Shown here: positions 1,083 through 62,500 of the stretch, piece after piece
Numbering within the stretch: position 1 is the stretch's first letter
Layout of the letters: each line of letters starts with the position of its first letter
IMG/VR virus record: IMGVR_UViG_3300029305_002733
Location: 1-64,000 of that record
Reading direction: 5' to 3' (one strand)
Source: a virus
Taxonomy: Duplodnaviria > Caudoviricetes
Length of the DNA stretch: 64,000 nt
The notes under the pieces: model-generated
What the model was told of the DNA's origin: nothing
The model's database searches: none
What the model saw: the letters and a program-made list of their open reading frames with translations, nothing else
Program-made: the position numbers and the translations under genes

Positions 1083-2469
1083 TTTTCAACTGCTCCTTAT
1101 ACTGTCTGATTACTTCGTGAGTGATAATGGTCATATTCGGTTTGGCTTGAGAGTATGTATCCCACTTTTCGTAGTTATTAATATCGGTTTCAAAGGCATC
1201 ACCAATACTGACCTCATATTCTCGCCTTCCATATTCCTGCCAAGCAATCGTCCTATTAATTTCCTCAACCAAGGCTTCAAATCCGTATAAAGCAATTTCT
1301 TCTTTTCCTAAGAATTTATTTTCGTATTGAACGATATGTTTGAATTTCTTAGGTGCTCTCAGATATTTTCTTACTGCCTTTTCAGTCCATTCCTGAACAC
1401 GAATATTGTTGAAGATATTATACATAATAACTTTCTTTTTATTACAATCATAATTCAAAACATAAAATTCAAACTGCATTATTTACCTCCGTAAAAATTA
1501 TTACATTGTGCCCATTGTTCTGGAGTTAATTTTCTCATTGATAATTCGTACACATCTCCATTATTTATATGTACAAATACTCTCCTTCTATCAGTCCATG
1601 TTTCTTCTTCTATTGTTTCAACATATTCCAGTGCATAATTACTATCTCCCGGAGAATAAAAACTTTCATCAAAACAGCTTCCATTACGTTCCGTATCATA
1701 AAAAGCAACTTGTAGTTCTTTCACTCTGCATTTACCATTATTGTCGTACCACATTATCTCACCTCCGGATCAAATTCTGTATTTATTCACCGTATTTAAC
1801 ATATCTTTCAAACGCTTCTATAAAAGCATCTCTACTCATAACCTTGTGGGCATATTCAGTATATACTTCACCGAACTGGTCATATTCAAATATTTTCTCA
1901 TAGATGCCATCCGGTTCCACAAAGTATTTTGGTTCGCTGCGAGAAACAGTGTAACGTAACGTAGCTTCTTTTGCCAGTTCTAAAGGCATTGTAATATTCT
2001 TACCATTGTAATATAATTCGTTTGTTGACATATATCCTCCAATCATCAAATGCTGCTTTTATCAATCCACATAATCCGTAAATTCTTTTCTACAACATAA
2101 GCACTTTACTGTTTGACACTCTACTATACCACTTGGTAAAAATTCAAACACAAACTGTTCGCCTGCTGTTGCACGAGATACACAACCTTGCTCTCTATGC
2201 TTTTCTATCCACTTATCTATTTTTTTACTTGTTTCAAATTTCATACCTTCACCTCGAATCCGAATAAAACTTTGTTTTTATTTATCCAAAGGACATTCAT
2301 CAGGACAATCCGTACACATCGGACAACAACCAAATATTTCTGCGTACTGTCTTCCAACTATATTTTGAATATCATCAATAATGTCATCAGCCAACTCTTC
2401 AATAGTAATGTCTGCATGAACATTCAGGTCGTATAAATCTTGTATTAATTTATCTCTAAACTCTTTCAT
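1075..2469 (-). CDS. five small hypothetical phage ORFs (1075-1479, 1479-1754, 1783-2049, 2062-2244, 2278-2469)
   Basis: Tightly packed co-oriented ORFs, most with GGAGG-type SD; no recognisable domains. Confidence 0.7.
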
Positions 2470-2501
2470 AATTCCTCCGAATCAAAGATTTATTTTATTT
2501 A

Positions 2502-3071: not shown

Positions 3072-3096
3072 TCTTCCTCCAATTCAAATGTTAATT

Positions 3097-4870
3097 TTAT
3101 TTACCCAATTCTTCTCTTCCACGAATACCTAATAACCAATATTCATACTGTTTTTCTGTAAGTCCCAAATATTCTATTGCAGATAATCCTGTATCTGAGT
3201 CGTGCCAATCATCCATTGCATCTAACAATAATGTTTCTATGGCAATCTCAGTAGCAGTTTTATATGCACCATCTGTAATTTCAGGAACATGCGACATTAA
3301 AACTTTTGCTGCCAAAATATTATTCATAATTATATATCCTCCAAATAAAATATTAGTTTGAAGGAATTACCACTCGTAATCCCAATTAATTAATTTTCCA
3401 ATACAAATATCCCATTTCCCAAGAGCAATCATGAAATAAATTTGATCATAATCTTTACAAAAGAATGCGCCTATATGCCAACGCTTACCATGTTCTTTTT
3501 CAATTGAAAACCATTTATACTTTCTCTGCTTCTCTTCCATCTTTATTCCTCCATCAACTTAGCCTTAACTACGTTTCTAACTTCATCCAGGATATTGTCG
3601 CAGCTACCACGAGAAGAAATCCATTCGCCATTCAGGTACAGGTCGTACACATTGTCTCCACGCAGCTTAATCTTAATATCAAAATTCATAACAGTTTCAT
3701 TATTCATAGTTCTTGTCCTCCAGTTTAATCGTTTACATCAAGCACTCGAATATTTGATATCCCGTAGGCAGTACCATTTAACATTTCTTTCAGCATATCT
3801 GCTACTTCTTCATCTTCTGCGATATCATCTCCATCAATCCAAAAGTCTAATTGCACTGTATAAGTCATAATTTAATCCTCCGATCAAAGTAAAGTTTTAT
3901 TTACCTAAATGTCTATGAATATGATTAGCCAAATCAAGTAAATATTCTTTGGCTCTGTCACTACTTCTTGCTACCGAGAATGCATATACATCATCACGCT
4001 CAGCGTTAAGCATTACTTCATCAATACATCTGTCAATAATAAACATTATTTTTTCTTGATTTTCATATGCTTTGTTATCATAATTTGTTTCTTGAATAGG
4101 GTGAATCTCACCTGTCATCTTAAATAAAACTTCCGAGATTGCTTCATTATCTAACATACTTTCTCTCCTTCCAATCAAAGCAAAATTTGATTTAATCTTT
4201 TTCACTAAAACCACAGAATATCCACACCAAAAACCAGAACAGTTCGTTCAGCGGATATGTGGTATCAAATATCTCCATAAATGGCATATTACAAACATCT
4301 AAAATCCAAAATATTGTAATTGCCGTTTTTATTAACCATATTAAACTCATATACTAATAACACTCCTCAAACAGAATTAATTCTGGTTTTATAAAACGAG
4401 CTTCTTCACTAATAATTCCATAATCTATTAGATGATTTAAGTGACTTATTGCTTCAGCCTTACCAGTTACTAAATCATCATCACTAATACTAACAGAGCA
4501 ACCTTCAAACTGTCGTCCCTTAGCAAATATGTAGCCAAGATATAAATGACAACCGCTCATAGGATCGTCGAAAATCTGTGTCCTTCCTGGAATCTGATTG
4601 CAGGAATATTTCTCTCCTTCACTAGACCACTTCCAGTCCTCAAACTTATCTGTATCCATACCGGTTAAATTGTAACCATAAATTAAATAATGTCTACTTT
4701 CTACGCTCATTTACCAAATCTCCTTTCGTTCATTATCTGCATTCAAGTCGCAAACTATAATGCACTCACCTGTCTGAGAATCTTCTATGTAAACCTTGTC
4801 GTGTTTTACGAAGGTATTAAATGTTCCGTTCCTCAGTTCGGTTCTAAGTTCCACTAAATCAATCATTATT
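3097..4870 (-). CDS. run of small hypothetical ORFs (3097-3327, three untracked ~45-60 aa ORFs in 3365-3868, 3897-4157, a ~52-aa membrane ORF ~4190-4350, 4354-4710, ~4710-4866)
   Basis: Co-oriented ORFs with SD; several translated by hand from the minus strand. Confidence 0.6.
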
Positions 4871-4938: not shown

Positions 4939-5223
4939 ATGAAAAGCATTAAAGAATACTGTTACGGATTCCATGCCAAAGGTGGCGACTTAATTGTATA
5001 CGGAGACAATGTAAAGATATGCAGGCAGTATATGGATACTCTAACACCTGATTGTATTGAAGATGTGTGTGAATACTGTTCACAACACGATATTCGGATA
5101 TTCCATAAATTCGACCGTTCTATTGGTGGATTAATATCTCTTATAGAAGTCTACATTCTTACTAAAAAATATAATGTTCATAGTTCATTTAAAGAATTAG
5201 TACAGTATCTTGAATCCGAGTGA
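4939..5223 (+). CDS. counter-oriented hypothetical protein (moron or cassette)
   Basis: 94-aa ORF with AGAGGA SD and its own promoter, in a gap between minus-strand genes. Confidence 0.75.
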   Translation: MKSIKEYCYGFHAKGGDLIVYGDNVKICRQYMDTLTPDCIEDVCEYCSQHDIRIFHKFDRSIGGLISLIEVYILTKKYNVHSSFKELVQYLESE

Positions 5224-5240
5224 TAAAAGAGTTGTTTGAT

Positions 5241-8200
5241 TTAGTATAATTTCAAACTTAATTCTTCTAAATCTGCTTTGATTCTATCTATTTCTGTAAG
5301 TCCGGTAATATCATTTAATAAATCTATAATGTCATTTACATCACTTTCAATATCGTTAATGACATCTATAACTGCGCTTTCTGGAATAAGATTTTCTTTT
5401 CCATCATCATATCCAAATTCAACCAATTCGCTATACGCAAATCCATTGCCTGTTATTGCTTTTCTGTACTCACTTCTGTTTGACATATGTTCACCTCTAC
5501 TTCCTATATAATTGGTAAATCTTCGTTTATGTACCCCGGAATCACACCGCAAAACAAATTAGTAACATGTTTACATCTAGGGCACTCAATTGCATGCCAG
5601 TCTTTATATTGTGGAGTTTTAATATACAGGGTATATCCACATTCGCAGAATGCTGCGGAATATCCTTCCATCTCTCTTGTTCCTTCTCCATAACTAGGTT
5701 TAGTTATAACTTCATCACCTTTATACATATATTCCTCCAATCAAAGAACTGTTTGGTCTATACTGTTCTCATATACATTTTGTCTATCTCAACATGGCTA
5801 TTGCAGTCTGGGCACACGATGTATTTTATAAAATTACAATCTCGTTGACTAATATAATATTCTTTCTCCTTAATATCTTCTGTTGTATATTTCAATTTCG
5901 CATCACAGAAATCACAACTTATAATATTTTTATTTCCGTGTTCAATTACTTCTACCATACTATGTTTCACTCCAATCCAATCTCTGCCCACAATCTGAGC
6001 AATAATCACTTTCCCAATCATTAATTCCGTACTCGAAATCATGCCCACATATCGGACACTTTGCATAGTCATAACACAAAAGTCCGTCTGCATATCCATC
6101 AGCAATATAATCCGGTCTCATCGGTGTCTGTTTATCCAATGCATTTTTAATGATTGTCAACGCACTATCTACGTCAACGCACTTCCACTTTAAGTGTGGA
6201 TTTGCAACAATATGTAATGCTTCTTTATTTGTCATATCTATTCTCCAATCAAATGAAAATTTGGTTTATCCTACCAACTTCCTATACAGTTCATCTGCTT
6301 CTTTCTCTTTGAAAACCTTTAATATTTTCGGAGGATTAACACGAGATACCATTAATAAGGAAATGTCTCCGTTATATCCTTCCTCGTAGGCTATTGTTAA
6401 AAGATCTTCAATAGGTTTCTTACGTTCCGGCTTCTTATATTCCATTGCCGCAGCTTCTAACAAACCTTGCATTGTATCATCAAAAAATTTACTCATTATC
6501 CCTCCAGTAGTTTTAAAAACTGCACAAAGTAGTTCGTTTTTGCACTACTCTGTGTAAAAATTAAAATGGCGGTGCAAGGCTTCTCACCTACTGCAAACCT
6601 CTCATGGATGTCGCCATAGTTTTATGTGTTGGTATCCCACTCGTTCCATGTTGTAGAGTCCGTATTTTCTTTCGCAACTTTATCTTTGTTCAACCGCCAA
6701 TTTTATTTATTTAATAACTCCCATCCCTGATACCACATAGAATTTGAATTTGCATACTCTTTAATCAAGTTAAGCATTTCATCTTCTTCTGGGAAGAATG
6801 GGTCACGCTTCTTTGTTGAGTTAATCCAGCCCAACGCATTCATCATGAATTGGCCAAATCTCATATCTGGGAATGAATGTTTATGTATTTCTTTTAACTC
6901 CGCATAAAATGAATCTAATCTATTTACGTCTCTCATATTTTTCTCCGATCAAATTGATAATTGATGGTGTCTCTATATCCAATTTAAATTAACCTCATCG
7001 TTCTGAACTCTTTCAAGATCATGCTGCTTGCTTTTAATTTGACTCTGTAAAAAGTCAATCTCATCTTGGATACGTGCCAACACCTTTTCTTTATTTTTTA
7101 TAGCACCTTTTCTTACGTAGTATTTACCACCACAATACATTCCTCCACTGTCTGTTGCTACATGCCACCAGTCACCTTCATCATATTCCCAAATATGTTG
7201 ACCAGAATGTTTGTTTACTTCATCAAAGTCAAATAGGAATTCAAATTCATCAAAGTTCTCATCTGTTAATTCGATGTACTTATCATTGAAATATGTATCC
7301 ACCATATACCATGTATTATCAATTTCACCATGGCAAACTTTAAACGTCCAATTGAAGCAATGATACATATCATCCCAATATAATGAACTTCTGTATCTTT
7401 TATCTGGTTCATGGCGATACAAACCATGTATTACGATTTTATCTACATTTTCTTTTGATAACATTTTTCCTCCAACAACCAAACCGATATTTTATTTACC
7501 AAGATACAAAAACCATAAACTCATTTGGTTGTAATCTTGAATATTTCACTTCAAAATCATTTTCAACAAAATTTTCTAATGCTTTGTATAAACATTTTTC
7601 AAACAAAGGGTCTTCATCTTGTAGCTTTATAACCACATTATTCATTCCGTCTTTTGCAGCTTGTAAAATATCTTTTTCTATTTTTTCTTCATACTCTTTT
7701 ACCAACTCTTCATAAATTGGACGATACATTAATTTTCTAACTTCATCTGCATTAATCATAATTTATCCTCCGGCAATCAAATCAAACTTTTATTCACTTT
7801 TTGAATCAATATATTGTATGTACTGCTCATCTGTTATACATTATATGGTGGTTCGTATTTTTTGAACAACTCACCCATTGTCATGTTGTTATACTTAGCA
7901 AGATCCATGGCTAATGCGCAGACATTTCTAGGTTGCGAAGCTCCAACTACATTACAAAGATAACTAGTAAGACTTCTTTCGAAAATGTCATACTCATCTA
8001 CTTCATCTTCGTCATCCCATGTTTTGCCAGACCAACCTAACATCTCAAGTCCATTTACATAGACTTTTGTATCCGGTGCATCTAAAACACTACCTTCTGC
8101 ATGTCTCCACCACGCATTTTTTCCTGCAAGGTCAACAAACATTTCCTCAGTGATGTCGCACATATCTTTGAATAAGTTATCAGACACTTCCCAGACTTCA

Positions 8201-8849
8201 TATCTGTCACCTTTGTATGTACGCTGATGTCGTTCATATTCTTTATGGTCTGACATTCTAATCATAAAATTCATTAAATGATTTCCTAAAATCTCTACCA
8301 TATTAATTCTCCTATCAATTAAACTTTGGTTTACTCAACTACTTTTGCTTTCATAAATATGTATGCCAAAATTAAAGACTCAATAATAATTGTCAAATTA
8401 GCACATACAAGCTGCCATGCTGTAACCTCAACACCTCTTGCAACATCTACAATTGCCCAAAATGCAAATGCAGAGCAAAAACAAAAAATCCAATGTAATA
8501 CATTAAATCTGTTATTCCATCTCTTCTTATCTTTATCTGTCATATAATCCTCCTAACCATCAAACAAAACTTTGATTTACGCTTCATACGGTTCGAATGG
8601 CATCCATGCAATCACAGTACTTACAACTTTCATTCTTCTGCCGCCAGTACCATAAGAAAACCATATGTGCTCAACCTTATCTCTCTTCGAGCCACATTCT
8701 CTTCTTGTATATGTAGCAACGAAATTGTCTCCTTTTTTGGTTTGAATCAATACTTCTTCAGAAGTATATGTTGCAAGATACTCACTACAATAATCTAATT
8801 CTGCATCTGGATATCTCTCACTACATAAAATCCAATCTTCTTTACTCAT
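5241..8849 (-). CDS. array of small hypothetical ORFs, including Zn-ribbon protein 5960-6235, membrane protein 8331-8543 and DUF551-like 8577-8849
   Basis: CPICG..CSDCGQRLDW motif; two hydrophobic segments; WILCSERYP..VIAWMPF pattern; most ORFs bounded by 7-6-7 sites. Confidence 0.65.
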
Positions 8850-8928
8850 TATATTTCCTCCCGATCAAACTCAGTTTTTATTCACCTTTTCATTCAATAT
8901 CTTGTATCTTTATTCATACACCACCACA

Positions 8929-10026: not shown

Positions 10027-10119
10027 TAGTAATCAGGAGTAAATCATGATTTGTCCTGCGCAGAAACCTCTTACTCCTTTCGTTTAATTTTGTTTAGTTT
10101 AGAACCCAATCAAATCGGG

Positions 10120-11528
10120 TTTCTATCTTGTACAACTCACTTCATCAATATCTGTCCAAATAATTAAATCACCGTCTGCATCGCAGCCAAATCCATTAAA
10201 TCTTCCAACATAATTGCCTTTTCCTTCTACGGAAGCAACGATATATATATTTTTTTCTCTTAATTTATTTTCTATTTCTCTCATTTCTGCTATTGTCATC
10301 ATTAATTCCTCCTTTAAACTAGGCTAATACTCCCAATGTCCATATGCAAAACTTCCTAAATATCTACCACAGTTTTTGCAATATAAACTATATTCAACTT
10401 CAACAAAGACACCACCAATATCTTCCTTATAAATATTTCTCTGCTCCGTTTCTTTACAACCACATTCACAAGTTAATGGTAAATCTTCCATTTTTAATCC
10501 TCCACCAAATCTGCTTTCTATTTTTTGAACTTTTCATAATCAATAAGCTCGAACTCGTCATATACATTTGGAATAAAGATTCCTACCCAAAAATTATCTT
10601 GCGCATTCTGCCTATATATAATTGTTTCATTCCATTCCTGAACTTCATCAAGAACTTCTTTACTCAATAAACCAAATTCATCTTTACAAGCATCACTTTC
10701 AATCTTATATACAATTGCTTTATATGTTTCTCTCTGTTTTTCAAGATCAGCATCTAAAGTTACATAATTCACCATAATTATCAGTAATAAAACGGCAGTT
10801 ATAATTCCTGATATAGTTACCACGAAAGAACCAATATCTTCCCAATGGTAATCTCCATAAATCGTAACTAATACTCCAACAATTAATAAAATAACAAAAA
10901 TCCAAAATATCATATTTACTTACCTCCAAATCAAATCTGTTTTCTATTCATGGTACTCTGTCATCTTTGCTACTTCTTCGTTACTGAAACTCCACTGCCA
11001 TTCGTGATAAAAATCATCAATTACTGTTTTGTTATCAACAATTCCAACATCAACAGATAAAATATTGTTAAGTGGATACATTGTTCCATTATTATCCAAA
11101 ATATAACCTTGGCTAATTATGTCGCATCTTCTATCATCTTCAACATTAATTCTGTCATAATCTAACCACTTAGAACGGTAGCCGATATGCTTCTCGCCGT
11201 CTATAGTAGTAAATACAACTCCGGTTTTAACCAAGGTCATTGTCTTTGGCTTTTTATCTTTTTTCTTCCAAAACATATTTTCACTCCCGACCAAATTTAT
11301 TTTTTATTTTGTCTCCATTCCCATATTTAAGCAGCACCATCCACCAGTCCAGAACAAGATACTACCTACCCACCATTGCCAAGTTGTTATCTGATACCCT
11401 ATTGATGGAAAGAACATTCCTACTAGAGCACAGATAATCCACCATCCAATTGTATATATTTTCTTTCTACTTATTTTTTCTCCCAACCAAATCTCGAATT
11501 TATTTCTTATGTCCAATATACTAAACAA
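10120..11528 (-). CDS. five small ORFs (~10123-10300, ~10320-10490 Zn-finger-like, 10518-10913 membrane, 10944-11276, 11304-11528 membrane)
   Basis: SD-led ORFs; hydrophobic N-terminal segments in 10518-10913 and 11304-11528. Confidence 0.65.
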
Positions 11529-13271: not shown

Positions 13272-14171
13272 TTATCCAAACACATTGTTTTTAATTTCAT
13301 CTAGTTTAAATGGGATGTAATATGAAAACCCATTATTTTCGTTACAAGTATATTCAAAATTAGAATAACTCTGTAATTTATCTGGTGTAGCTTGTGCTCT
13401 ATAACAAGTGTCTTTAACCGGACATTCATTACTAGTGCACATAGTCACGTCTGGCATTTTTAATCCTCCTCCTTTGTTGATTCTTCCTGTAATCTTCTTC
13501 TAAATTCTCTTTCGGCCATTGACATACCTTGACCTAATGCCCCAATATCTAAGATACATTTAACGTTATATTCCTTTAAGAGTTCAACAATAATTTGTTC
13601 ATAGATTTCATTTGCTCTCTTCCATGTTATAGTTGGATATTGAAGTGCCAAATAAAATAATCGTCTTGGGACATAATACTGAGCATTCATCATATGATTA
13701 TAAAATTCTTCATTAGTAATACAAGACACCTCCAATCAAAAGTTGTTTTTATTGTATAGTTTTAATTATGCGTAGTTCCCTTTATTTTTAAAGGCAAGGA
13801 AAAATTTCCCTGCCTTGGATACAAAGGCTGAACTGTTTCTTTTGTTCACACCTATACAATAACACTACTTTTTAATTTTGTCAAGTATCTAATTGCATAT
13901 TTTTTAATTATGCGTAGTTAAGAACATTAAGAATGATTGGATAGCCCTCTCCGTAATAGAAACTATCATTATATGATACGAAATCCACTGCTTCTTCATA
14001 GTCCATACCTTCCTTCTCAATAAGCCATTCAATCATTTTGTCATAATCGTACACTGCTCTGTTGTCATTAGTAACACCGATGAAGGCATCATCATATGAT
14101 GGATTCTCATAGATGATAACATCTTCATAGCCATAATCTTCAATCATCTCTCTGGCTTTCATGTGAATCAA
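13272..14171 (-). CDS. three small hypothetical ORFs (13272-13457 Cys-rich, 13460-~13700, 13908-~14162)
   Basis: ORF track; SDs for the first two; DDAFIGVT..AVYDYDKMI pattern typical of phage small proteins. Confidence 0.65.
13856..13884 (-). promoter_or_regulatory. sigmaA promoter TTGACA-17-TATTGT with extended -10 TG, between operator motifs 13903 and 13761
   Basis: tgtcaa 13879-13884, acaata 13856-13861. Confidence 0.7.
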
Positions 14172-14185
14172 AATCTCCTTTTATT

Positions 14186-36483: not shown

Positions 36484-37173
36484 TTATTCACTCTTTTGGT
36501 TTAATTTTGTCCAGTTATACCATCCATACAGACAGTTGATTGTCCATGCAATATACATCGCAACCATAGACCAGTTGCCATCAACAAACCACATCTTCAA
36601 ACATAAAATATCAATTGCTAACCACCAAATCCACTGCTCTCTATAACCCTTAATCATTAAAAGCTGTGCTACAATTGCAAATACATTTGTTGCTGCATCT
36701 GTATATGCCTGCTGACTATTAATAAGAGTTAATGCATATCCAGTACCCATTGTTAATGCACCGGTTACAGCTCCGGATAAAAGCCACTGTTTAACTGTAA
36801 ATTTCTTCGCCTTAACCTGAGTAGAACCATCGTCATTCTTATTCATGTTCTTTTTCCAAATGAAAATACCCCAAATCATAGTTACAAGATAAAAGATATT
36901 CTCTAAGAACTCACCGTAAAACCTTGCTTCCCATGTAAGCCATAAACAAATACCAGTCTGCACAAATCCAATAAAGTAAAAACTCAACTTTCCCTTTGCA
37001 CAAAGTACTACAGAAATTGTTCCTGCAACACCTGCAATCATACTTAACCAAGAGTCCGGAGCAACTACAAATACTGCAATCTGTAATACAACCATAGAAA
37101 TCATAAATAACTTTTCAAATACGTTATATCCTACCCAAAATTCATTCAATAACCAATTCTTAATTCTTTCCAT
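36484..37173 (-). CDS. pnuC: PnuC nicotinamide riboside transporter
   Basis: Multi-pass membrane; VVLCAKGKLSFYFIG, YTDAAT..AQLLMIKGYREQWIWW, INCLYGWYNW. Confidence 0.92.
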   Translation of the reverse strand: MERIKNWLLNEFWVGYNVFEKLFMISMVVLQIAVFVVAPDSWLSMIAGVAGTISVVLCAKGKLSFYFIGFVQTGICLWLTWEARFYGEFLENIFYLVTMIWGIFIWKKNMNKNDDGSTQVKAKKFTVKQWLLSGAVTGALTMGTGYALTLINSQQAYTDAATNVFAIVAQLLMIKGYREQWIWWLAIDILCLKMWFVDGNWSMVAMYIAWTINCLYGWYNWTKLNQKSE

Positions 37174-43007: not shown

Positions 43008-43033
43008 AACGCAGAACCTCCTTCTCTTGTTTA

Positions 43034-43065
43034 ATATTACCATATACTTTTAATTTTGTCTAGTG
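43034..43065 (-). promoter_or_regulatory. promoter TAGACA-17-TAATAT with the operator motif overlapping the -35
   Basis: tgtcta 43057-43062, atatta 43034-43039, motif 43049-43065. Confidence 0.6.
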
Positions 43066-43085
43066 TTAGTTTAAACAAAAATATA

Positions 43086-45928: not shown

Positions 45929-46024
45929 CGGTGATCAAAGAATACTTTTATTCACATACGATAAACTTGTTTGTAAACCAGTTTACAAACAACTTCCTGT
46001 TGAATCAAATTTCACTTTTATTGG

Positions 46025-46783
46025 CTACGCTGCATTATAATTTTTATCATTTCTAATATCAACTTTATACTTGTATAATGCATTATACACTTGCTCAGGA
46101 ATTATTTCCTTATATTCATCTGCAACTTGCTTTATGTACTCTTCTTTTGCTTGGGCATATACTTCATAAGCATCCATAACTGTATCATAAACACCAAGCT
46201 CCCTTGTGTTGTATTTTGCCAAATAGCCATTCCCTTGCTGAACAATACCATTTGGTAATCCTCTGTTGTTTGATTTGTTCATGAAAATCATACTAATTCT
46301 TTGTGGTATTACTAAGCACCTATTAGGAGCATATACTTTGTTACCAGGATACAGAATGTCTTTATCTACATGAAGTCTCTCATTAACATCATATTTATGA
46401 GCTTCATACCAATCTGCAAAAGTGTGAAAACATTGCCATTCACTACATACGGTTGAAGTTCCATAGTATGCTGGATATTTTTCTTTTTCCTTTTCGCCAT
46501 AGCAACGAGCAATAATTTCATGCCATATATTATATGTCCTTGATGTTTTATCATCTACTTTTGTTGGATGATCTCCAAGACCAATATAACCAACACCATG
46601 TACAATCCTATCATAAGGATTTTTTACTACGCCTCTTTTAAAGTTTTGATATGTTTGATGCTCTTTGATGTAATGGAATTCGTCTAAAAATTCAACATCA
46701 ATATCTGCACTATTTTCATATCTAATAATTCTCATTGGCGTTCCTCTTGTGTTTCTATTTATTTCATATAATCTTTCGTTCAA
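46025..46783 (-). CDS. HNH-like homing-endonuclease-type protein, paralog 1
   Basis: GTPMRIIRY..DIDVEF, TYNIWHEIIARCY, VCSEW..F..W, HVDKDIL..NKVYAPNRCLVIP. Confidence 0.75.
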   Translation of the reverse strand: MNERLYEINRNTRGTPMRIIRYENSADIDVEFLDEFHYIKEHQTYQNFKRGVVKNPYDRIVHGVGYIGLGDHPTKVDDKTSRTYNIWHEIIARCYGEKEKEKYPAYYGTSTVCSEWQCFHTFADWYEAHKYDVNERLHVDKDILYPGNKVYAPNRCLVIPQRISMIFMNKSNNRGLPNGIVQQGNGYLAKYNTRELGVYDTVMDAYEVYAQAKEEYIKQVADEYKEIIPEQVYNALYKYKVDIRNDKNYNAA

Positions 46784-46828: not shown

Positions 46829-47578
46829 CTATGCTGCCATCAAATTCTTATCATTTCTAATATCTACTTTGTATCTAAGCATAGCTTCATAAACATGTTC
46901 TGGTATCATATCTTTGTATTCTTCAGCTACTTGCTTAATATGATTCTCTTTTGCATTAGCATATGCTGAGTATGCACCTTCTAAAGAATCAAATATACCA
47001 AGTTCTACAAGATTGTATCTCGAAGAATATCCATCTCCCACCTGCATAACTCCATTCGGCAATCCTCTTTTATTCTCTTTATTGGTAAAGAGCATATTAA
47101 TTCTCTGAGGAACTAATAAACAAGTGTATGGAGAATAGATTTTATTTCCCGGATAAAGAATATCCTTGTCCAAATGCAATCTGCCTTCGCATTCATACTT
47201 ATTTGCATCAAACCAATCAGCAAATGTCTGATAACATTTCCAATCTTCACAAACGGTACAAACATCATAATAAGCTTCGTAAATGTCTGAACGTCCTTCT
47301 TCGTAGCATCTGCCAATCATATCGTGCCATGCATTATATGTACGCACTCTTTTATTATTAATCTTTGTTTGGTGTTTTCCTACGCCTAAATACCCGATCC
47401 CGTATACAGACTTATCATATGGATTTTTCATATTGCCCTTTTTAAAATTCTGATATACTGCATGTCTTACGACATAATTATGATCATCCATGAACATAAC
47501 ATCAATATCAGAACTACTTCCATAACGGATAATTTTCATTGGCGTACCATATCTATTGTAATTTATTTCTCCTAACAA
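46829..47578 (-). CDS. HNH-like homing-endonuclease-type protein, paralog 2
   Basis: Same motifs as the neighbour over the full length; shared upstream TTTTATGAAAGGAGT and C-terminal YKVDIRNDKN..AA. Confidence 0.75.
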   Translation of the reverse strand: MLGEINYNRYGTPMKIIRYGSSSDIDVMFMDDHNYVVRHAVYQNFKKGNMKNPYDKSVYGIGYLGVGKHQTKINNKRVRTYNAWHDMIGRCYEEGRSDIYEAYYDVCTVCEDWKCYQTFADWFDANKYECEGRLHLDKDILYPGNKIYSPYTCLLVPQRINMLFTNKENKRGLPNGVMQVGDGYSSRYNLVELGIFDSLEGAYSAYANAKENHIKQVAEEYKDMIPEHVYEAMLRYKVDIRNDKNLMAA

Positions 47579-47622: not shown

Positions 47623-48703
47623 CTATCTTACCTCGTTTAATACCTCTTGATAGTATCCATAAGAATCATTTTTCCACAACTTCTCTGCTTCTTTAACTTT
47701 CTCCATAGTTTCCGGTGTAGGATAGCCAAGAATTTCTCCAGCTAAAAATCCCTTACAATAATCGTCCCACATATGATCGCTGACAGAAATAGTTTCATCA
47801 CAAATTCCATCTACTGTTTCATCCATAATTTCATAGAATGCAAAATTAATATCACAACCATTATCTTCTGCGTAATCAACTATGATTTTAGCAAATGTTG
47901 CACAATCTTCACTGCCAGTCCATTCACTAACTCTGTCATCATCTCTCTCATTTAATTCCATATCAAAGTAATAACCTACTTCCATTGCCTTTTTAAAAAT
48001 ATTATTCATATCATATACCTCCTAATCAAACCATTCTTCTATTTCATTCTACTAAGAATTTCTGTCTTCAATTTATCTACCTTAATCTGTAATTTATCAA
48101 CTTCATCGAGTTTATTCTGTTCTGTTTTAATACTCATCCAGATTAAAGCCTTTTCTAATTCATTCAATAATTCTTCGTTTGATTTGTCTTTCATTACTAC
48201 CTCCAACTTACGTACTAACTTGCGTATTATCTTACTTTTACTAATTTGTAAAACTTTGTTTCGTCACCGCCACTAGAAAGCAATCTGTAAAACAACTGTT
48301 CTGCCGGAACCAAACTATTAAATTCATAAGTCGCTGGCATCTTCCACATTGTTTTCATTCTGTTGGTAATATACACCTTATCACCATTGCAATATAATTC
48401 TTTTGCTTCTTCTTCTGAAATCTCTATGTATTTATCCATATCATTCACCTCTACCAAATTAATCTTTTATTCAACCTCAATAACAATTTTAACACCATAT
48501 CCAGTATCTTTAGGCATAGCATATATATATGTAATTTCCATGTCTAAAATATCTTCAATATCAGAATGGTTCGCTTCTTCGAATTCATCACCTTCGGCAT
48601 GAATTTGATATTCTTCAATAATATCATCATACTCCTTAATTTGATACCCACCTTGAATTCTAATTCCCTGGTCTAATAAATCTCTAATACTCATATTTAC
48701 CAC
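47623..48703 (-). CDS. small hypothetical ORFs (47623-48009, ~48039-48194, 48227-~48439, 48467-~48694)
   Basis: SD-led ORFs, several bounded by 7-6-7 sites. Confidence 0.65.
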
Positions 48704-48768
48704 CTCTCATCATATCACATTTTTCGAGCTATTTCCATATTTTTCTGGAAAGCAAATCCGTATTTTAT

Positions 48769-48972
48769 TTACACTAAATTGTGTTCCTTGCACAATCTAC
48801 GCCAAACCATCGGGTTTAACTTACCATTAGTGTTAATGATAACTCTATCACCATTACTATTAACATAATGCCTATGGGAACTTGCTGTCTTTCTGTTCTT
48901 ATCCCACTGATAACCATTCTTCCGTAAAATCTTTTCTGCATTTCGCCAATCAATCTGCTTGTAACTACACAT
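48769..48972 (-). CDS. HicA/YcfA-like small protein (putative mRNA interferase), no HicB
   Basis: AEKILRKNGY..SSHRHY..GDRVII..L..MVWRRLCKE fits the HicA dsRBD-like pattern. Confidence 0.6.
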   Translation of the reverse strand: MCSYKQIDWRNAEKILRKNGYQWDKNRKTASSHRHYVNSNGDRVIINTNGKLNPMVWRRLCKEHNLV

Positions 48973-51900: not shown

Positions 51901-54900
51901 GAAATGTGACCGCAAATTCATATTCTTTCATAATTACCTCCTAGTCAACATCTACAATATAAAATTCTGTTGTATCTTCATCAGCCCAAGTAATAAGAGC
52001 AATATCTTCTTCACACCAACAGTTTTCTTCATCCAACGGATCGTCTATTTCTCCATTTAAATTATCAGCAATAATATCGTTATAAAAATCTTCCCACGCT
52101 TTTCTTAAAGCATCTTCAGATGTTTCATTTTCTTTCACTCTAATAACTTCAGGCATTGCTTCACCCATTTCCATATCATGATACTTTTTGTAAATCAAAA
52201 TTACTTTCATAATCCTCTACCTCCTAATCAAATGTGAGTTTGATTTAGTTGCTATCTAATACTCAACTCATCTTCGAAAACATCATTTTCAGTTCCATCA
52301 TTAAATCTGCACTTGTACATATATCCAACATCGTCAATATCACATTCCAAGTTTGTTAACGGTCTGATGATTTCAACTTCTGTTCCGTTGTACTGTAATA
52401 AATCTGTATCTGTTGTAGTAAATATAAATTTCATTCCGTTTTCTAACATAATAATTACCTGCCTTTCATCAAATACGAGTTTGATTAACACCAACTAAAC
52501 GGTTTCTGTTGTCCATTTGCTACATAATCTTCATTGCTTGTCTTACAAATATGTAACCAATCATTAACCATTGCTTCGGCGGATTCATATTCATAATGTC
52601 TAAGTTCTCCATCTGCTGTTTCTCTTTCAATATTCTTACCGAAGAACTTGTAATACTTCTGATGCCAGTCTTGATAATAACCATTGTTAATTACAATGTT
52701 ACCTTTCTTGTTCCATGCAAATCCATAACCATAAAAGCTACAGATTTCTGCCATCTGTTCTTCTGTTTCGCTCCACTGCTTACCGGTTTCTCTTTCATAA
52801 TCTTCTCTTACATCTAAATCAATAATGCTATCCATATTCATTCTCCTTTCATGGACAAAATTCCGATTTGATTTACTTTACTACCTTTACATTCTTCCCT
52901 AATACCTTACAAATCTCTTCTACGGTCATTTCAACTGTATCATTGTTTTGATTATCCCTATCATAAATCAGCTCTGCAAATCTATCAGTCCATGAAAACT
53001 CTTCATTCTCTAACATTGATGCTAAATTTGTCATATGCTTTTGTGTCCAAATTTTCATAACATCGTACTTGGAGCAATACTTATTTATTGCACTATCTGT
53101 CTGTAACGTATGTTCGTCTTGATAGTCAGTTGAATAAGTTAAATTCTCATTATAACTACTCAAACACATGTGCCCCAAATAACCAATTAAATAACCATCA
53201 ACAACAAGGTATTTAACGCCACTTCTTAACTCCACAATCATTCCACTTTTTAAAATACTTTTCATACTAATTCCTCCTAATCAAATCCCAATTTGACTGC
53301 CACTTAAATGTGACAGTCAACAGCAGTTACAACAACATCTTCTTCTAAACTGCTAATGAAGTTTTTAAATTCTATTTCCCAACTATCTTTATCTTTTTCA
53401 TTGGACACGCAAGCCCACCATCCCATTTCGCCACGCTCATGCCATCTTCCATCAGGTGAAATAAATGCAAATGGTACAGTTTCTGTCCAATCAATTTCTG
53501 AAGCATAATCTTCATTTGTGGGTTCTCCAGAAAGTGTCTTAAGATAACCATTCCATCTTCCACCAATTGAATACCAATCCCATTTTGAATTTGGGTTATA
53601 TGTAGAATAAAGATTACCTTCTTCATCCTTATCATCGTCTTCATACCAACTAGCTACATCTTCATAACACTCATCATCTGTCCAATTCATCTTCTTTGGG
53701 AATTCTTCACGAAGATAGTGCAAATGTTTTTCATTAGAACAATCTTCTGCATACTTTTCCGGGTTCTCTAAATACCTTGCATAAGTTCCATTCTTGTATT
53801 CTTCGATTTCCTTTCTGGTTTTTGCAATTGCCTGTTCTCTCGTGTACTTAATATATGGTGCAACTACAATATTCTCATCATAAGGTGCGAGTAATTCCTC
53901 AACTGTTCTTCCTTCTTCTTTTGTAAATACTAAAGTAATAAAATGTGACATAATTCATTCTCCTTTCATCTAATCAAATCTTGCTTTGGTTAACACCAAA
54001 TCCCTAATCTGTACATTAAATCATACAGACCATGGTAAAAATCTGTTTCATGATATTCACTATCTTCATCACAAACGCTTTCTAAAACATCATCTGCTTT
54101 AGTTAATGCGTTAACTAATTCTCTTTTCTGTTCCTCAGATAATCTGTTTACCAATTCTTCCATATCAACGCCTCCTTATAGAATCATTATTCTATTCATC
54201 CTCATTTGGCCAGTATCCAAGTAAATTTGCATTCAGTTCAATCATCTCAATCTGCTCATAATTCTCTTCATAATCAAGATTAAATTTATCCATAAGCCGA
54301 TTCCAATTGTAACCAGTAACATCACTCTTATAAATTTCAATACTCTGTGTTGACGCATTTGGAACATGTAAGTAATTGATAATGTATGGTAAGAAATCAT
54401 CAATCTGATTTGTTTCATTACAAATCTTAACTGCTGTTCTTATCAATGCCTGAACAAATGCATCAGACATGAATGCACTACCAGTAACTTCCTTAATCTC
54501 CTCTTCAGTAATCTCTTTTACATTTTCCCAACCCTTATCCATGATGTATGTAACCACTGTCATTGCTACATGTTCATCAAAGTACTTCCGAATAATATCT
54601 CTTACGTTGTCTCCTGCTAATTTCATATCTTTTTCCTCCTCTTAGCTCACTCTTTTCTGTGGCTCAATTCCATGTTCCCAACAAATCCTATCTATCTCTT
54701 CATTTGTGAGAATTTTTAGTACCTTAATGGCTCCGGCTATTATCCAGTCTTCATACATAAGTGGACTGGTTTTATATCTGTAATAACCATTCACTGGAAT
54801 TTCTTTTAAGTAACTCTTTACCGGAATTACCTTGCCATCCTTATTAGTTCCATTCTTATTAGCGACAGGTTGATAATCAACCTCATCACTATATTCAACC

Positions 54901-56529: not shown

Positions 56530-59500
56530 TTAATATTCCTCCTTATAAAATCTGATTGTACGTTCCTTTTCAGCTTCATAATCTTCTCTGTTACTATAAG
56601 GACATAATGTGATATCTCCTTCACAATATGTAAATACTGCCATCTGCTCATCAGAGTAAGCATAAGAAGAATAACCATCAATCTGATGTAATACAAAGTC
56701 ACACTTGGCAGCGAACGCATAACACAAATCATCCAACCAATGACCACTTAACATATAATCGCCTTCTCTGTTTGTGGTTTCCTCGGTGAAATTAATGTTT
56801 ACAATTCTCTGTGTGGTTTCATTCAAGTGATAAGCAGAGAAATCAATCGGTAAAATCTCATATTCATCATCCTTTGGGATTCTTCCAGTTTCTCTAATCA
56901 TGTTATAATAATCATTCCGTTTAATTTTCTGTGCTGCCATCTTATTTACCTCCATGTAATCTAAACCATAATGCACCCTGCATAAACTGTATCAAGCCTT
57001 CTACACTCTGCGAATGACAAATCATATCTTCCATCATGTGCTTCGTGTTTGCTTTGTAGATGTAATATCCGTCGCTTCCCTTATAGAAATCAACTGGTGT
57101 TACACAATTTTCAAAACCAATTAAAGCACCCTTACCATAAGAATCTGTGCTAATCTTCTCTCTAATCTTATCTGCCATAATTATCTCTCCTTTATCTCTG
57201 CTAACATATTGTCAATGCACAACATTAAGTTCTCTTCCATGTTTTCCTTAGCCATTTCTAAATGCTCTTTAATCTGCTGACGAATTTCTTTCTTAGTTAC
57301 GTTATGTCCGTAGTTTGCAACCACTTCATCAATGATTTCCTTGTAGGTAAATCCAAGAAGTAAATCATCATTCATATGAATTGGCAAATCATAAGTAAAT
57401 TCCTTACCATTTCTTTCATCTATTTCCGGGTCATACATCCATCTACTCATACTCTAACCGCCTTTCTATTTTCATATCTCTCTTGCATTCTGTTTAAGAA
57501 CTCTTGATATTCCTCTGTAAATTCTATTTTCTTTCCTGTCTCAAAAACATAATTCTTATTACGTCCATATATCCAACACTTGTCTATTGGATTCCAACTC
57601 ATATAACAATGCCAATACCAATTTGAAAGACATATAATCAAGCTCTGTCTCTGTGTGCATGTCAATCTTTTTATTCCTGAGAAGTCGCTTCCCATATACA
57701 TTTCTTTAGGAATGACACCATTATGGTGATCCTCAATCAAAAGGTTTTGCATTTCTGGAGTTATAATGTTATGCCAAAAGTTATCATCTTTATCTCTATT
57801 GCCTTGTTTGTCTTCAAGCCAACTATGATATACATCTCCATCAATTGCCCAAACTCTCATACTTTGATTACAAACCTCATACTTACCTAAGATTTCCATC
57901 TTATTTTCCGCCTTTCGTTTTAATTATGTTTAGTTTCGTGACTAAACCAAATTTAAGATTTATTACCTATGCTGCTTCAATTCTTTTTAACAAGTCGTCT
58001 GTTTCTAACTCATAAAATTCGCCAATGCTATCTTGTTTTTCTGTATCATATACATCATACCCTTCTCTAAATAGGTTTATATCTGCTACATATCTATCAT
58101 TTATGTCTTTCATTTGTGTCATGGATTCCAAGTAGAATAAATCATCAAAATGATCAAACTTGACTGCAAAATAATCTGAATAACCACCACGAATATCACC
58201 GAAAAGATGAACCATGAATAACATTACTCCACAATTCTTTTTGTAATTCATGTTCAAGTCATTACAAATATTCGCTCCCCAATTATATGTATTATCTCCC
58301 TCGGAATCTTCTCTGAATTTTTCAATCCATTCGTCAGATACATTAATTTCGTATTCTTTCAATTCTTCAAGAAGTGGAAGAATATCCCCACAGATAACAT
58401 CATTTCTAATATTCCCATCGTCATCAAAAATCCAAGCTCTATGATTTTTATCTACCAAACGAATGGATTTCACTTGTTCAATTACTCTATCTAATCTACT
58501 CATTTGCGTTCCCTCCGTTTCTTATCTGTTCCGCCTACATCTTCAGGCTTAATCTTACATCCGTACTTTGCAGATACTAGACCGGCTATATCTGCCTTTG
58601 TAAGTCTGACATGTAATTCTCTTTTTGTGTTCGTTCCATACAACGTCATGTTATATCCTCCTTTTAATTAAGTGCAGTTAGGCTATGGCTTCTAAACTAT
58701 CAAACACCTTGTCAAAACCTGCTTCTAATGCAATTTCTTCAATCAAATCATCGCCCCATTTACTAGAATAGAATCCCCAACAAGAATCCGTGTTTTCATT
58801 CCACTCATCATCTTCTGCGTCAATAAGCTCATCAATGATATAACCATAACATTCTCCCTGTAGATACATGTCATATTCTTTGACTTCGCTTTTAAGCCAC
58901 TTGTAAGCAGCATCTTTCCAATTCTTATCAGTAACTTTAATCCAATTACCTTTCTTTGATTGTATTTTCCCACCACACTTAAAAATTTCTTCTTTTGTGG
59001 TATAAATCCAACCGGCCTGACCACTATCCCATGGACATGAAAAACCACCAATATTCATTGTAATTCCACTATGTTCATAGATATATAATGGCAAACTATA
59101 AAACCCTTCGCTCTCAAGCAACTTCCATTTATCCTCAAAGTTCATAGCATCAATGATATCATCAACAAGATAGTCAATTGGATAGTTACTTTCAATTACA
59201 CCATGATGTACTTCGTTACCAGTCCACCAATATCTATAATAACCCCAAAGTTCCCATAAGTTTTCGCTTCGGTTATACTTCAGTTCTAATCCATTAGATG
59301 TCTTACCGGACTTCACAAAGTTAATAATTTTCTTTTCGGAAACGTGATATCTTACCAAGTGATTCAAGAAATCTTCAGGCTCCTTAAATTCATTTTTATC
59401 TCCAAGATCATATCTATTCCACCAACACATCATGTGACCAATATTACCATCCCAATCAACTCTAGGATTAAGTGGCTCACTATCTTGTTCGACGTGGATT

Positions 59501-62500
59501 CTATAAATTTTACCTTGATAATCCTTTGCGTATTTATATTCTCTCATCTCAACAACCTCCTGCTGTACACATAAAATCATCCGGTACAAATGTAATATCT
59601 TTAAACAGTTTCTTAATAAGCTCGTTGGATATCTCATCCGGAGCTTCTGCAACTTCACTCATATAAGGATATCTTCCTTCGCTATGAGCTAAAGCACATA
59701 CATAATTTACTTTTAATTCATCAAGCTGATCCTGATTTAAATCGTTTACGCTCATGTTGACCTCCTATAATGGCTTTAACTTTACCTGTCCTTTGTATAT
59801 GGACAATCTACTTGTTACATACATATCCTGTGAAAAGTCATAATCATAAACATGCCAGATTTCATCATCATTTTCGAGTCTGAATTTCACATCATTCATA
59901 ATCTTACAAATCTTATTTGCACTTGAATCAGGAACAAAGAATGCATTCTGTTTAGAGTGAAAGAATTCCGTTCCCTTTCGTGTCTTAGCTATCAGTTTCA
60001 TTTAATCACTCCTTTCAGTGAATAGAAGTAGAATTTTATTACCAGTCTTCTTCATCTTCGTCCGGTTTGCTAAACCAATCTGTTTCTTTAAGTTTCTTTG
60101 ATTTATATAAAGACTTTCTCGAAACATCAACTTTTTTCAAATGACTCTGTTCAATTGCACCAACTGTAAAATGATAATCATTGTACTGTACAGTTGCCTG
60201 ATACACTGGATATGCAAAAGTATCCCAACCACAACTAATATATTCGTAGTCTGTATCTGTATCACTAGCAAAGTCTAAAGCCATTGCTCTGACTTTCTCT
60301 TTCATTTGTTCTTCTGTTCCGTTGAATGTGTGTAAATCCAATCCATCAGAATCAGTTGCGATTCCGTAAATGTAATACTTCATAACCATTTTCCTCCTAA
60401 CCAAATGAAACTTTTATTCATAATACTCTGTTTCAAATTCAAAACGAATTTCATAATCATTTTCGCCATCGTAAAGTTCACATATGCCAATACAATCACT
60501 AAAAGTATCCTCATTGCATAATTTCAAATTCTCTTCACTATCATTTACCGGATAAATACCAACTATAAATTCTGTTCCCATTTGTAGCAGCTCGGCTATT
60601 CTCTTAATAGGGAACATCTCATCAACTTCTTCTTCGGATAAATCGTACAAGTCAATTTCACTTCCATTTGTATTGTTATATAAAACCCACGGAATTAAAT
60701 CACCCTTACATCGACAATCTAAACTGTTTGGATCATAGTCAATGTCTCCATGAATGTCTAATGTCAATTCAAAGTTTTGTCTATCTTCCACATAAGATAC
60801 CTTTAACCAGTCGGGTGTATATCCTATATTGTTTTTACTTTTTGCGTTTAGATATAATCTCATATCTCTTACCTCCGTTTAATCAAATATAATTTCTATT
60901 TCCATCCATTGTCCTTTTTCATTTCCTCTGCATACTGCATAAGTGCTTCAACCACTTCTGCAACGTTTGTGTCATTGTCGTCTGCAATCTTTTCAAGTTC
61001 CTTTGCTTCAATGTCATATACAGTAATATTTGTCATATGTTATACCTCCGTTTCTTTAACCGGAATCAACTTTCCGCTGTCAATCAACTCATTCAAGCGT
61101 TTTTCACTTATATACTCTTCGATTGAGAACAACGTAGAATTGTCATTTCCATAACCAGTTCCTTCAACGGTAATAATAAATTTCTGTCCCTTTTCAATTT
61201 TCATAATTCTATACCTCCTAATAAAATGCGGGTTCTATTTGCTCATTTCGTAACACATTGCTTCAAAATATTTCCCAACTTCATCAAATTTTTCCTTGTT
61301 AATATTCCAAGGCATAACAATCATAACTATTGAATCGGTTGAGCCATCACTCCACTTCTCTGTTTCTTCTCCAAGGATAACATCGTACTCTGGATACTTA
61401 TTTGAGCAATCAACGGCTTTTTCTTTGGCAATCTGAATAAGGTTCTCATACGTCATTTCTAAATCTTCTGCATATCCCTTATCATATCCTGCCTCAAAAG
61501 CAATCCCGTATCTGCCATTAAACTCTACGAGATAGCATCTAAGACCGTAAACGCCCTCACACCACAGCTCGTTATATGCATGTTGCAATTCCTTCGGCAA
61601 ATCCTCAACCTTATCGATGTCGTACTCCCCGTTGTGGTGTAAGTCTCCACAACTATTACTCCAGTATAAAAAGTTTCCGCCTAACTCATTTTTAAATTCA
61701 TATAACATATCTTTTTCCTCCTAATAAAATGTTGGTTTGGTCTTACCATCCATTAGAATCAAAACCATAATTGTTATTGATATCAAAATCTTTATGCATA
61801 ATGATTTCACTTTCCTCAATATGCAATTCTCCTGCCCATAACTCTGTATACGGCTTATCATAAACATGAGGATTACTATACTTTTCTACATAAGCTTCCG
61901 CATCTACTTTACTTTCGAAGATTGCTACCAAATCGGTACAACTAACTGCATCTCCGAATCCACCATCTACATCATAATTGTGAAATACACTATAAGTTTT
62001 CATTTTCTCTTTCCTCCAATCAAATAAGGTTTTTATAATCCTTTTTTCTGTTGCTTTCTCAACTGTTCAATACTTGATACACATAAATAATTAAGTCCTT
62101 TTGCTTTAAGTTCCGCATTGAGAGTGTCAATGTTTTTAAATTCAGAAAACTTGATACACATTTCGCATCGTTTACTTCCGGTTCTCCATCGTGTACAGTT
62201 ATAACATCCTACCTCGTCAGGCTTTAAATGCTCCCTTCCTTTTACCATCGCTATTCCTCCTATACAATCAAACAATGTTTTGATCATCTAGTCACTAAAC
62301 GCATATCTATAACCATGTACCATGTTTACTAGTGTTCTCACGCCGACAAACGCTTCCATACTTTCATATATTGGAACACGTCTATCTATATAATCTCCGT
62401 TCTCAAATATGTTCCATACAGATGTTCTCTTTACAAGAACACTATGCTTCAATGAATCGGCATTTTTGTAATAATACTCCTTTCCAGTTTCTATCATTTC

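Follow-up and report, generated by a model that had tools for sequence, protein, structure and literature searches.

We analysed the first 64 kb of the 83.6-kb virus contig record IMGVR_UViG_3300029305_002733, a stretch of 64,000 nucleotides from an SPbeta-like phage, referred to below as the window, in which all genes lie on the minus (coding) strand. Dispersed along it is a 20-bp dyad with the coding-strand consensus AATMAAA-N6-TTTKATT, in which two inverted arms flank a spacer of free sequence. For the exact pattern AAYMRAA-N6-TTTKRTT, 23 positions gave a total of 41 strand matches, where chance would give 0.23. A weight matrix of the arms only located 51 non-overlapping minus-strand sites in the window, compared with about 4.8 in Markov shuffles, and a stricter cut-off retained 43 sites against 0.2. 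These numbers agree with the approximately 45-50 copies of a 7-6-7 inverted repeat that a first-pass annotation had claimed for this DNA. No dyads were found in the remaining 19.6 kb of the record (64-83.6 kb).

The sites are listed here with their spacers, called addresses where they are compared between genomes. G and L numbers are handles for other genomes and contigs: G006, G007, G008 and G011 are contigs of one Joint Genome Institute (JGI) sample, and L312 is a contig of a Logan assembly.

62266-62285 (-), dyad; spacer acattg; weight-matrix score 18.1
62018-62037 (-), dyad; address acctta; weight-matrix score 15.3; spacer, in order, also in G006, G011, L312, L315
61723-61742 (-), dyad; address ccaaca; spacer also in G006, G011, L312, L315
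61220-61239 (-), dyad; address cccgca; spacer also in G011
60881-60900 (-), dyad; address attata; upstream border of cassette 60414-60863; 96% block of L315 starts at spacer
60399-60418 (-), dyad; address gtttca; downstream cassette border; L315 identity stops within right arm
60021-60040 (-), dyad; address ttctac; spacer also in G006, L312, L315
57945-57964 (-), dyad; spacer cttaaa
56058-56077 (-), dyad; address tgaaag; spacer also in G006
53972-53991 (-), dyad; address gcaaga; spacer also in L312
53279-53298 (-), dyad; address ttggga; spacer also in L312
52854-52873 (-), dyad; address tcggaa; spacer also in L312
52467-52486 (-), dyad; spacer ctcgta
52226-52245 (-), dyad, arms perfectly palindromic; address ctcaca; spacer also in L312
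51596-51615 (-), dyad, site list
48750-48769 (-), dyad, site list
48452-48471 (-), dyad; spacer gattaa, also found in L316
48024-48043 (-), dyad; address gaatgg; spacer also in G008
46003-46022 (-), dyad; address gtgaaa; spacer also in G008
45933-45952 (-), dyad, site list
43074-43093 (-), weak dyad adjoining a directional 19-bp motif; weight-matrix score 11.6
39917-39936 (-), dyad within NAD-ligase gene, site list
36469-36488 (-), dyad, site list
36355-36374 (-), dyad, site list
34519-34538 (-), dyad, site list
32576-32595 (-), dyad abutting the directional 19-bp motif, site list
28799-28818 (-), dyad at stop of second chemoreceptor gene, site list
27175-27194 (-), dyad abutting the directional motif; spacer acaata, also in G006, L312, L316
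21458-21477 (-), dyad inside RecJ-like coding sequence; perfect score, one of the top-scoring sites
14166-14185 (-), dyad after RecD2-like gene, site list
13734-13753 (-), dyad, site list
11485-11504 (-), dyad, site list
11289-11308 (-), dyad, site list
10929-10948 (-), dyad, site list
10503-10522 (-), dyad, site list
10108-10127 (-), dyad, site list
8863-8882 (-), dyad, site list
8558-8577 (-), dyad, site list
7775-7794 (-), dyad, site list
7477-7496 (-), dyad, site list; weak second match at 7511-7530
6247-6266 (-), dyad, site list
5739-5758 (-), dyad, site list
5222-5241 (-), dyad; address caactc; spacer also in G011, G013
4173-4192 (-), dyad, arms perfectly palindromic; exact pattern and site list
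3882-3901 (-), dyad, site list
3082-3101 (-), dyad, site list
2480-2499 (-), dyad; address taaatc; spacer also in G007
2263-2282 (-), dyad; address acaaag; spacer also in G007, G011, G010
2044-2063 (-), dyad; address gcagca; spacer also in G007
1768-1787 (-), dyad; address acagaa; spacer also in G007

Anatomy of the dyad and its use at gene junctions

The arm geometry is 7-6-7, the spacer being exactly 6 bp in all 51 sites, and the 51 spacers are pairwise different within the window, although uniqueness alone is not significant with 0.7 repeats expected. Within-genome repeats of a spacer numbered zero in each of the 7 genomes compared. The fixed spacer with a sequence of its own in each copy was thus described correctly in the first-pass annotation, as was its picture of a left arm that contains or abuts the upstream stop codon and a right arm shortly before the Shine-Dalgarno (SD) sequence. 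In 16 sites the left arm takes the form AA-TAA-AA or AA-TAG-AA, with the stop codon (TAA or TAG) at its positions 3-5; in about 12 others the last base of the stop codon falls on arm position 1 or 2. At about 33 sites the right arm ends 9-21 nt upstream of the next start codon, with the SD sequence in between. Genes in these cassettes are mostly promoter-less.

Two earlier claims stood only in part. Dyads had been placed at most accessory-gene junctions; they are enriched at gaps of 25-45 nt, where 26 of 43 junctions carry one (compared with 3 of 48 at gaps of 24 nt or less), but "most" was overstated, since only 42 of 125 junctions are occupied overall (18/34 in 0-14 kb and 18/48 in 44-64 kb). 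The replication block had been considered free of sites, and it is not entirely so: dyads lie inside the RecJ-like gene (21458-21477) and the ligase gene (39917). The former, a top-scoring site, sits in the 5' part of the coding sequence, where it encodes AIKSFFDC versus VLVEVLKN in relatives with no indel, and the junction upstream of this gene is too tight for a dyad. This coding dyad arose by substitutions alone, indicating that the element is independent of junctions.

Symmetry of the dyad and a second, directional motif

In 31 of the 51 dyads the central pair of the arms is mismatched (A.G), and variable arm positions change independently of their partners, that is, without covariation. 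Arm degeneracy is mirror-symmetric, with T>C at position 3 and A/C at position 4 in both arms. Typical dyads fold at 0 to -1.7 kcal/mol (z about 0), weak hairpins (-3.8 and -4.3 kcal/mol) are possible in the two perfectly palindromic copies, and a search of Rfam gave no matches at dyad sites. Missing covariation, mirror-image degeneracy and lack of folding together are, as far as sequence can tell, the signature of symmetric protein sites on double-stranded DNA.

A directional 19-bp motif, AAACTANNCATAATTAAAA, is present in 23 copies within 3 mismatches compared with 1.8 expected, all of them on the coding (minus) strand. The copies mostly head gene groups, and several abut a dyad. Examples from the motif scan are:

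57918-57936 (-), copy of AAACTANNCATAATTAAAA
63242-63260 (-), copy of AAACTANNCATAATTAAAA
40397-40415 (-), copy of AAACTANNCATAATTAAAA
27192-27210 (-), copy of AAACTANNCATAATTAAAA

This motif is likely a promoter and/or an SPBRE-type operator of an MrpR-like repressor. The operator of MrpR/SroF is a long asymmetric A-tract box that is read by a monomer and present at about 10 promoters (PMC10516654; bioRxiv 10.1101/2025.11.27.690993). With SPBRE/phi3TRE the dyad has in common the phage family, an AT-rich element repeated across the early region, and a (here, candidate) binder of tyrosine-recombinase fold. It differs in being symmetric, with a free 6-bp centre and about 50 copies, and in its location at stop-SD junctions. 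We rejected the dyad as SPBRE because the published phi3T box is asymmetric and monomer-read, with no 7-6-7 dyad in it, and because the separate directional motif is present; AAACTANNCATAATTAAAA is the likelier SPBRE counterpart in this phage. In Bacillus phage SPbeta (NC_001884), the phi3T-type SroF box core GAATAAAAATAAAAT directly precedes several SD sequences (L003 18684, 37767 and 24410; L001 45638), and in two of these places it lies immediately 3' of a dyad.

Spacer order and slot contents between phages

Dyads were found at stop-SD junctions in independent assemblies, namely G006, G007, G008, G011, G010, G013, L312, L315 and L316; L312 had 36 strand matches of the dyad pattern against 1.4 expected. 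Spacers recur between genomes in the same orientation relative to transcription and in the same order. The order acctta, ccaaca, (cccgca), attata, gtttca, ttctac, tgaaag is common to the window's phage, G006, G011, L312 and L315. Likewise, taaatc, acaaag, gcagca, acagaa is common to the window's phage and G007, and gcaaga, ttggga, tcggaa, ctcaca to the window's phage and L312. The longest collinear spacer runs between the window's phage and G006, G011, G007, L312 and L315 were 6, 6, 4, 9 and 5/5, respectively, and that between G006 and L312 was 9, compared with null means of 0.02-0.5 and a null maximum of 1-3.

Conservation of address order does not extend to the surrounding DNA. Sequences flanking same-address sites are at random identity (0.27-0.38), and no nucleotide blocks at least 80% identical were found linking the gene arrays of these address-sharing genomes. 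The same pair of addresses delimited a slot in two genomes in 34 cases; in 33 of these the contents were without tblastx similarity and differed in length, and the slot from acctta to ccaaca held five unrelated fillers. Arm identity was 0.82-0.83 for same-address sites versus 0.80 for different-address sites, and both arms were identical in just 4 of 63 same-address pairs, which usually have about 12 contiguous bases in common. As the arms of same-address sites are no more alike than unrelated arms, the conserved island is the 6-bp spacer, and the arms appear to travel with the neighbouring genes.

Breakpoints at nucleotide resolution

One cassette allowed the limits of homology to be followed base by base:

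60414-60863 (-), cassette gene, 149 aa, no family, between addresses attata and gtttca

This cassette has more than 200 homologs. The copy in L315 lies between the same two addresses and is 96.3% identical in nucleotides over 60899-60389, with both neighbour genes unrelated. Similarity starts at the spacer attata, upstream of which the left arm (AATAGAA versus GATAAAA) and all further sequence differ. It then covers the right arm of this site, the SD sequence, the gene, the stop codon with its left arm and the spacer gtttca, and stops inside the right arm of the gtttca site (TTTGGTT versus TTTGATA). G006 and L315 have another block in common (85% identity), which begins 4 nt into the ttctac site. 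The proposal that gene units delimited by the sites are exchangeable gained support here, in that homology between related phages switches on and off at dyads; the alignment of relatives that it had called for singles out the 6-bp spacer as the conserved, putative crossover island.

The test of whether homologous cassettes keep their addresses had no informative pairs in the first genome set, and later yielded one same-slot case (L315) and one different-slot case (L312). Near-identical strains L305-L308 showed no differences at dyads and hence were uninformative. SPbeta and phage phi3T (KY030782), also of Bacillus, contain 14-15 copies of AATAAAA-N6-TTTTATT, a lower density, versus 2-3 in the control. 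When the two were compared, 4 of 15 SPbeta dyads lay within 30 nt of the end of a homology block, an association with P of 0.0005 against random positions that is marginal against a gene-junction null (P about 0.03). At the dyad upstream of yorE (SPbeta 99496-99515; phi3T 89338-89357) the two phages have the same arms, but in record orientation the SPbeta spacer reads TGATAA and that of phi3T its reverse complement, TTATCA; inversion of the centre alone or of a local segment could account for this.

Adjacent paralogous HNH-endonuclease genes occupy 46025-46783 and 46829-47578 of the window. A homolog (65-72% nt identity) stands in another slot of L315, from ccaaca to attata (1256-1990), suggesting that a homing-type gene moves independently within the arrays.

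Candidate proteins and distribution of the dyad among relatives

The window encodes a trio of proteins of SPbeta type:

43086-44099 (-), YopP/SroD-like Xer-type tyrosine recombinase, candidate enzyme; Pfam Phage_integrase, 9e-31
41763-43043 (-), YopQ/SroE-like protein, possible alternative arm binder; phrog_5732
40835-41779 (-), MrpR/YopR/SroF-like recombinase-fold repressor; Pfam MrpR_N_CB, 5e-15

Alignment of the 43086-44099 protein with XerD and XerC-like structures matches each of the residues R, K, HxxR, H and Y. The full tyrosine-recombinase catalytic set is therefore present, in keeping with the earlier description of this recombinase as intact. From sequence comparison we infer that strand exchange would be performed by a tyrosine recombinase, with this YopP homolog as the first candidate. 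A ParB_N/Srx domain has been reported for SPbeta YopQ (PMC8612738); a Pfam scan of the window's YopQ-like protein gave no hit and no ParB domain, and a scan of viral contigs found no relatives with a YopQ-like protein. The parS-type loading sites of ParB-family CTPases are contiguous palindromes of about 16 bp; in the dyad, 6 free bases separate the two halves.

The window's phage, G008, G010 and SPbeta have both dyads and MrpR-family modules, and G001-G005 and G009 have neither dyads nor that family. Strict co-occurrence of dyads with the sro (YopP/Q/R) module, as suggested by G008 and G010 versus G001-G005 and G009, was rejected: in L302, L303, L310, L318 and L319 the module or parts of it are present and dyads absent. 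No other lineage-specific dyads were found in module-bearing relatives without this dyad. The replication block is common to 77 viral contigs (DNA polymerase 78-86% identical in amino acids), whose small-gene arrays are unrelated and which have no MrpR-family protein and essentially no dyads. With only the replication block in common and dyads absent, these polymerase relatives were unusable for breakpoint mapping. A scan of the viral collection with one 15-nt address gave only chance matches besides genomes already known, and a search with the exact AATCAAA...GGAGG pattern gave one chance match. Literature searches retrieved no description of such an element.

A reverse transcriptase gene (420-425 aa, Pfam RVT_1) is located in the same accessory arrays of L310 (8993-10255), L312 (12909-14171), L318 (2660-3922) and L319 (5455-6732); it is absent from the window.

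Comparison with known systems

In engineered recombinase-mediated cassette exchange, heterospecific lox or FRT sites have common arms, and sites with different spacers do not cross-react. The likeness would lie in one recombinase acting on common arms, with two same-spacer exchanges replacing the intervening DNA in register; the dyads would differ in forming a natural system, with about 50 spacer variants in one genome. Stoperators of cluster A mycobacteriophages (L5 gp71) are asymmetric, orientation-dependent 13-bp sites with no variable centre. Like dyads, they occur dozens of times in the short gaps between genes, in their case as repressor sites of lytic operons, whereas the dyad is symmetric with a variable centre. 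Stoperators are not known to take part in gene exchange.

On Acinetobacter plasmids, pdif sites, which delimit dif modules and are acted on by XerC/XerD, are likewise many short Xer-type sites with two arms and a 6-bp centre that flank single adaptive genes in accessory regions, with genes found in different replicons, homology stopping at sites and the recombinase mostly inferred (PMC6449649). By contrast, the dyads have a phage carrier, alike 7-bp arms instead of 11-bp arms of XerC and XerD type, a stop codon in the arm and a single orientation between co-transcribed genes; all shared addresses have the same orientation, unlike the oppositely oriented sites that flank dif modules. Their centres are position-specific and in map order across phages, slots show allelic replacement and not module movement to new places, and the candidate recombinase is a phage-encoded Xer-like protein instead of host XerC/XerD. 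T4-type PeSLs are promoter-plus-terminator stem-loops that recombine by mutual homology and give mini-circles (PMC2839356; PMC4122927). They too are repeated intergenic elements among small accessory genes of hyperplastic regions, and bound insertions, deletions and replacements between relatives. The dyads have no stable stem-loop and at 20 bp are too short for both a sigma-70-type promoter and a terminator; they are unfolded and have position-specific centres in kept order. Of the systems described so far, pdif modules and PeSLs come nearest to the dyads; position-specific ordered centres and slot-wise replacement of phage genes are found in neither.

A proposed model of addressed exchange and its alternatives

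We lean slightly, at odds a little better than even, towards the view that dyads are DNA-level, protein-recognised and heterospecific exchange joints of tyrosine-recombinase type, which would split the early and accessory arms of the genome into about 50 slots. The 7-bp arms, AATMAAA and TTTKATT, would be common binding sites for a symmetric, dimer-type protein, and the junction-unique 6-bp spacer would serve as an address, much as the overlap does in core sites of tyrosine recombinases. If related genomes come together, through co-infection or when a superinfecting phage encounters a resident prophage, exchange would be completed only between sites with an identical spacer, and two same-spacer exchanges would swap the gene or genes of one slot in register. 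The exchangeable unit would be made up of the right arm, the SD sequence, the open reading frame (ORF) or ORFs, and the stop codon with the left arm. Because spacers are mutually different within a genome, its sites would be mutually inert and the genes between them would not be deleted. In the lysogen, the same protein bound at the sites may also block transcription as a roadblock.

Xer, Cre and lambda Int cleave at the borders between arm and overlap and require the two partner sites to have the same overlap sequence; in Xer-type sites the central region measures 6 bp. The dyads show the two inverted arms around a 6-8 bp overlap that characterize core sites. Comparison of the L315 case and the 63 same-address pairs would place the crossover within the overlap, with the arms staying with their flanks, and the kept order of addresses would be consistent with a need for partners to share the overlap. 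Several points tell against this view. Nucleotide-resolved breakpoints number two only. The L312 homolog of the 60414-60863 cassette (76% nt identity) occupies a different slot, implying that cassettes are not strictly slot-bound and that another process also moves genes. Dyads within coding sequences (21458, 39917) are not cassette borders, and 7-bp arms are shorter than the 11-bp arms of Xer sites. L302, L310, L318 and L319 encode YopP-like and/or MrpR-like proteins, yet are without these or other junction dyads, and a YopP homolog was not detected in the dyad-bearing G006 and G011 fragments examined. Microhomology-dependent recombination or template switching across AAA-spacer-TTT could also leave the same pattern.

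There is a modest chance, well short of even, that swapping is just such a by-product of short homology or template switching, with no site-specific catalysis, and that a symmetric repressor of the sro module (the ParB-like YopQ/SroE, or YopP/SroD as a mere binder) uses the dyad primarily as its operator or roadblock. Confinement of dyads to early and accessory regions transcribed one way, with none at 64-83.6 kb, would fit this linker role, as would the several dyads that flank the promoter-like directional motif and the one embedded in a coding sequence. Binding at many sites has been reported for repressors of the SPbeta family (bioRxiv 10.1101/2025.11.27.690993), the ParB_N/Srx domain reported for SPbeta YopQ (PMC8612738) points the same way, annealing proteins are encoded in this phage family (YorG of SPbeta being Sak4-like), and PeSL-mediated shuffling in T4-type phages provides a precedent (PMC2839356). 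However, 12 or so contiguous bases are very short for homologous recombination, the more so with arms as different as in unrelated sites, and the window's YopQ-like protein is without a Pfam ParB hit. An operator also leaves unexplained why spacers stay identical and ordered while their surroundings are replaced. That the dyad is purely regulatory, acting in stoperator-like silencing or other DNA binding, with spacers shared by descent of a scaffold whose genes were replaced by unrelated processes, seems to us quite improbable. Its symmetry, copy number and junction location are like those of multi-site repressors such as that of the mycobacteriophage L5 stoperators, and its presence and absence follow the MrpR family in the window, G008, G010, SPbeta, G001-G005 and G009. 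Against this, L302 and L303 have the module and no dyads, nucleotide-resolved breakpoints fall in dyads, and 33 of 34 same-address slots contain unrelated genes between 20-bp sites that are intact at both ends, when illegitimate replacement would destroy dyads.

An RNA-level element, whether an mRNA processing site, a translational operator or an intercistronic hairpin, is suggested by the position between stop codon and SD sequence on the transcribed strand and by the weak hairpins of the two perfect palindromes. Yet arms that do not covary, the A.G central pair in 31 of 51 copies, mirror-symmetric degeneracy and the lack of an Rfam match leave it hardly credible, and ordered conserved spacers would go unexplained. 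Absent covariation and the folding energies of typical copies were the grounds on which we discarded a hairpin, and with it the mRNA processing hairpin that the first-pass annotation had offered as an alternative. We give as little credence to a strict integron-like system, in which the recombinase would cut out single-gene circles and insert them again at a platform site. The dyads share with integrons mostly promoter-less single-gene cassettes, a site at the 3' end of the gene that includes the stop codon, and a tyrosine recombinase encoded nearby. But there is no attI-like platform with Pc beside intI, the sites flanking the recombinase gene on both sides over 60 kb, and attC sites are long imperfect palindromes of 57-141 nt that fold as single strands, whereas dyads are 20 bp long without covariation and have a minimum free energy of about 0. 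There is no common crossover point either; the fixed order of addresses is the opposite of insertion at one entry point. Spacers that all differ within a genome would make neighbouring sites incompatible for excision by a conventional tyrosine recombinase, and the earlier suggestions of excisable single-gene circles and of an integron-like system thus give way to allelic, in-register replacement between genomes.

Returning to exchange joints read by a recombinase, we propose a further step more tentatively, with doubt slightly outweighing belief: the dyads may constitute a natural multiplexed cassette exchange, in which one phage-family recombinase would bind a common pair of 7-bp arms and use about 50 mutually incompatible overlaps as positional addresses, letting related phages trade single accessory genes in register and without self-deletion, and the population would hold a pool of unrelated alleles for each slot.

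Other features of the record

An Rfam RAGATH-18 RNA (74.5 bits) lies at 30582-30654 (-), directly downstream of a 396-aa ORF at 30706-31896, and probably represents the guide RNA of an IS605-type element carried by the phage. Three consecutive tRNA genes occupy 32369-32790 (-) of the window (Rfam, 52-57 bits). Positions 1-2687 of IMG/VR contig 3300018494_000614 (L142) are 99.6% identical to window positions 2687-1, and the contig extends about 10.6 kb past the left end of the window, indicating that the record is incomplete there and can be extended. The nearest MrpR-like proteins in species genomes are those of L302, L303 and L304, contigs from metagenome-assembled genomes labelled Lachnospiraceae, Lachnoclostridium and Absconditabacterales (the last probably mis-binned), which hints at a gut clostridial host instead of Bacillus.

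Significance for phage gene exchange

It is a long-standing question why large temperate phages replace the genes of their accessory regions one at a time and yet keep gene order and operon structure. The joints become visible here as short, symmetric, position-labelled sites whose 6-bp centres outlast every surrounding gene. The hypothesis of addressed exchange is directly testable in the model phages SPbeta and phi3T, which have lower-density dyads. If true, it would also make available dozens of natural, mutually orthogonal spacer variants for a single enzyme, useful in multiplexed genome engineering. If a recombinase reads the dyads, horizontal exchange in these phages would have a new organisation, allelic replacement at addressed slots, unlike the integron platform or the identical-repeat homology of PeSLs, and a function would be assigned to the conserved, catalytically intact and so far unexplained YopP-type recombinase of SPbeta-like phages.

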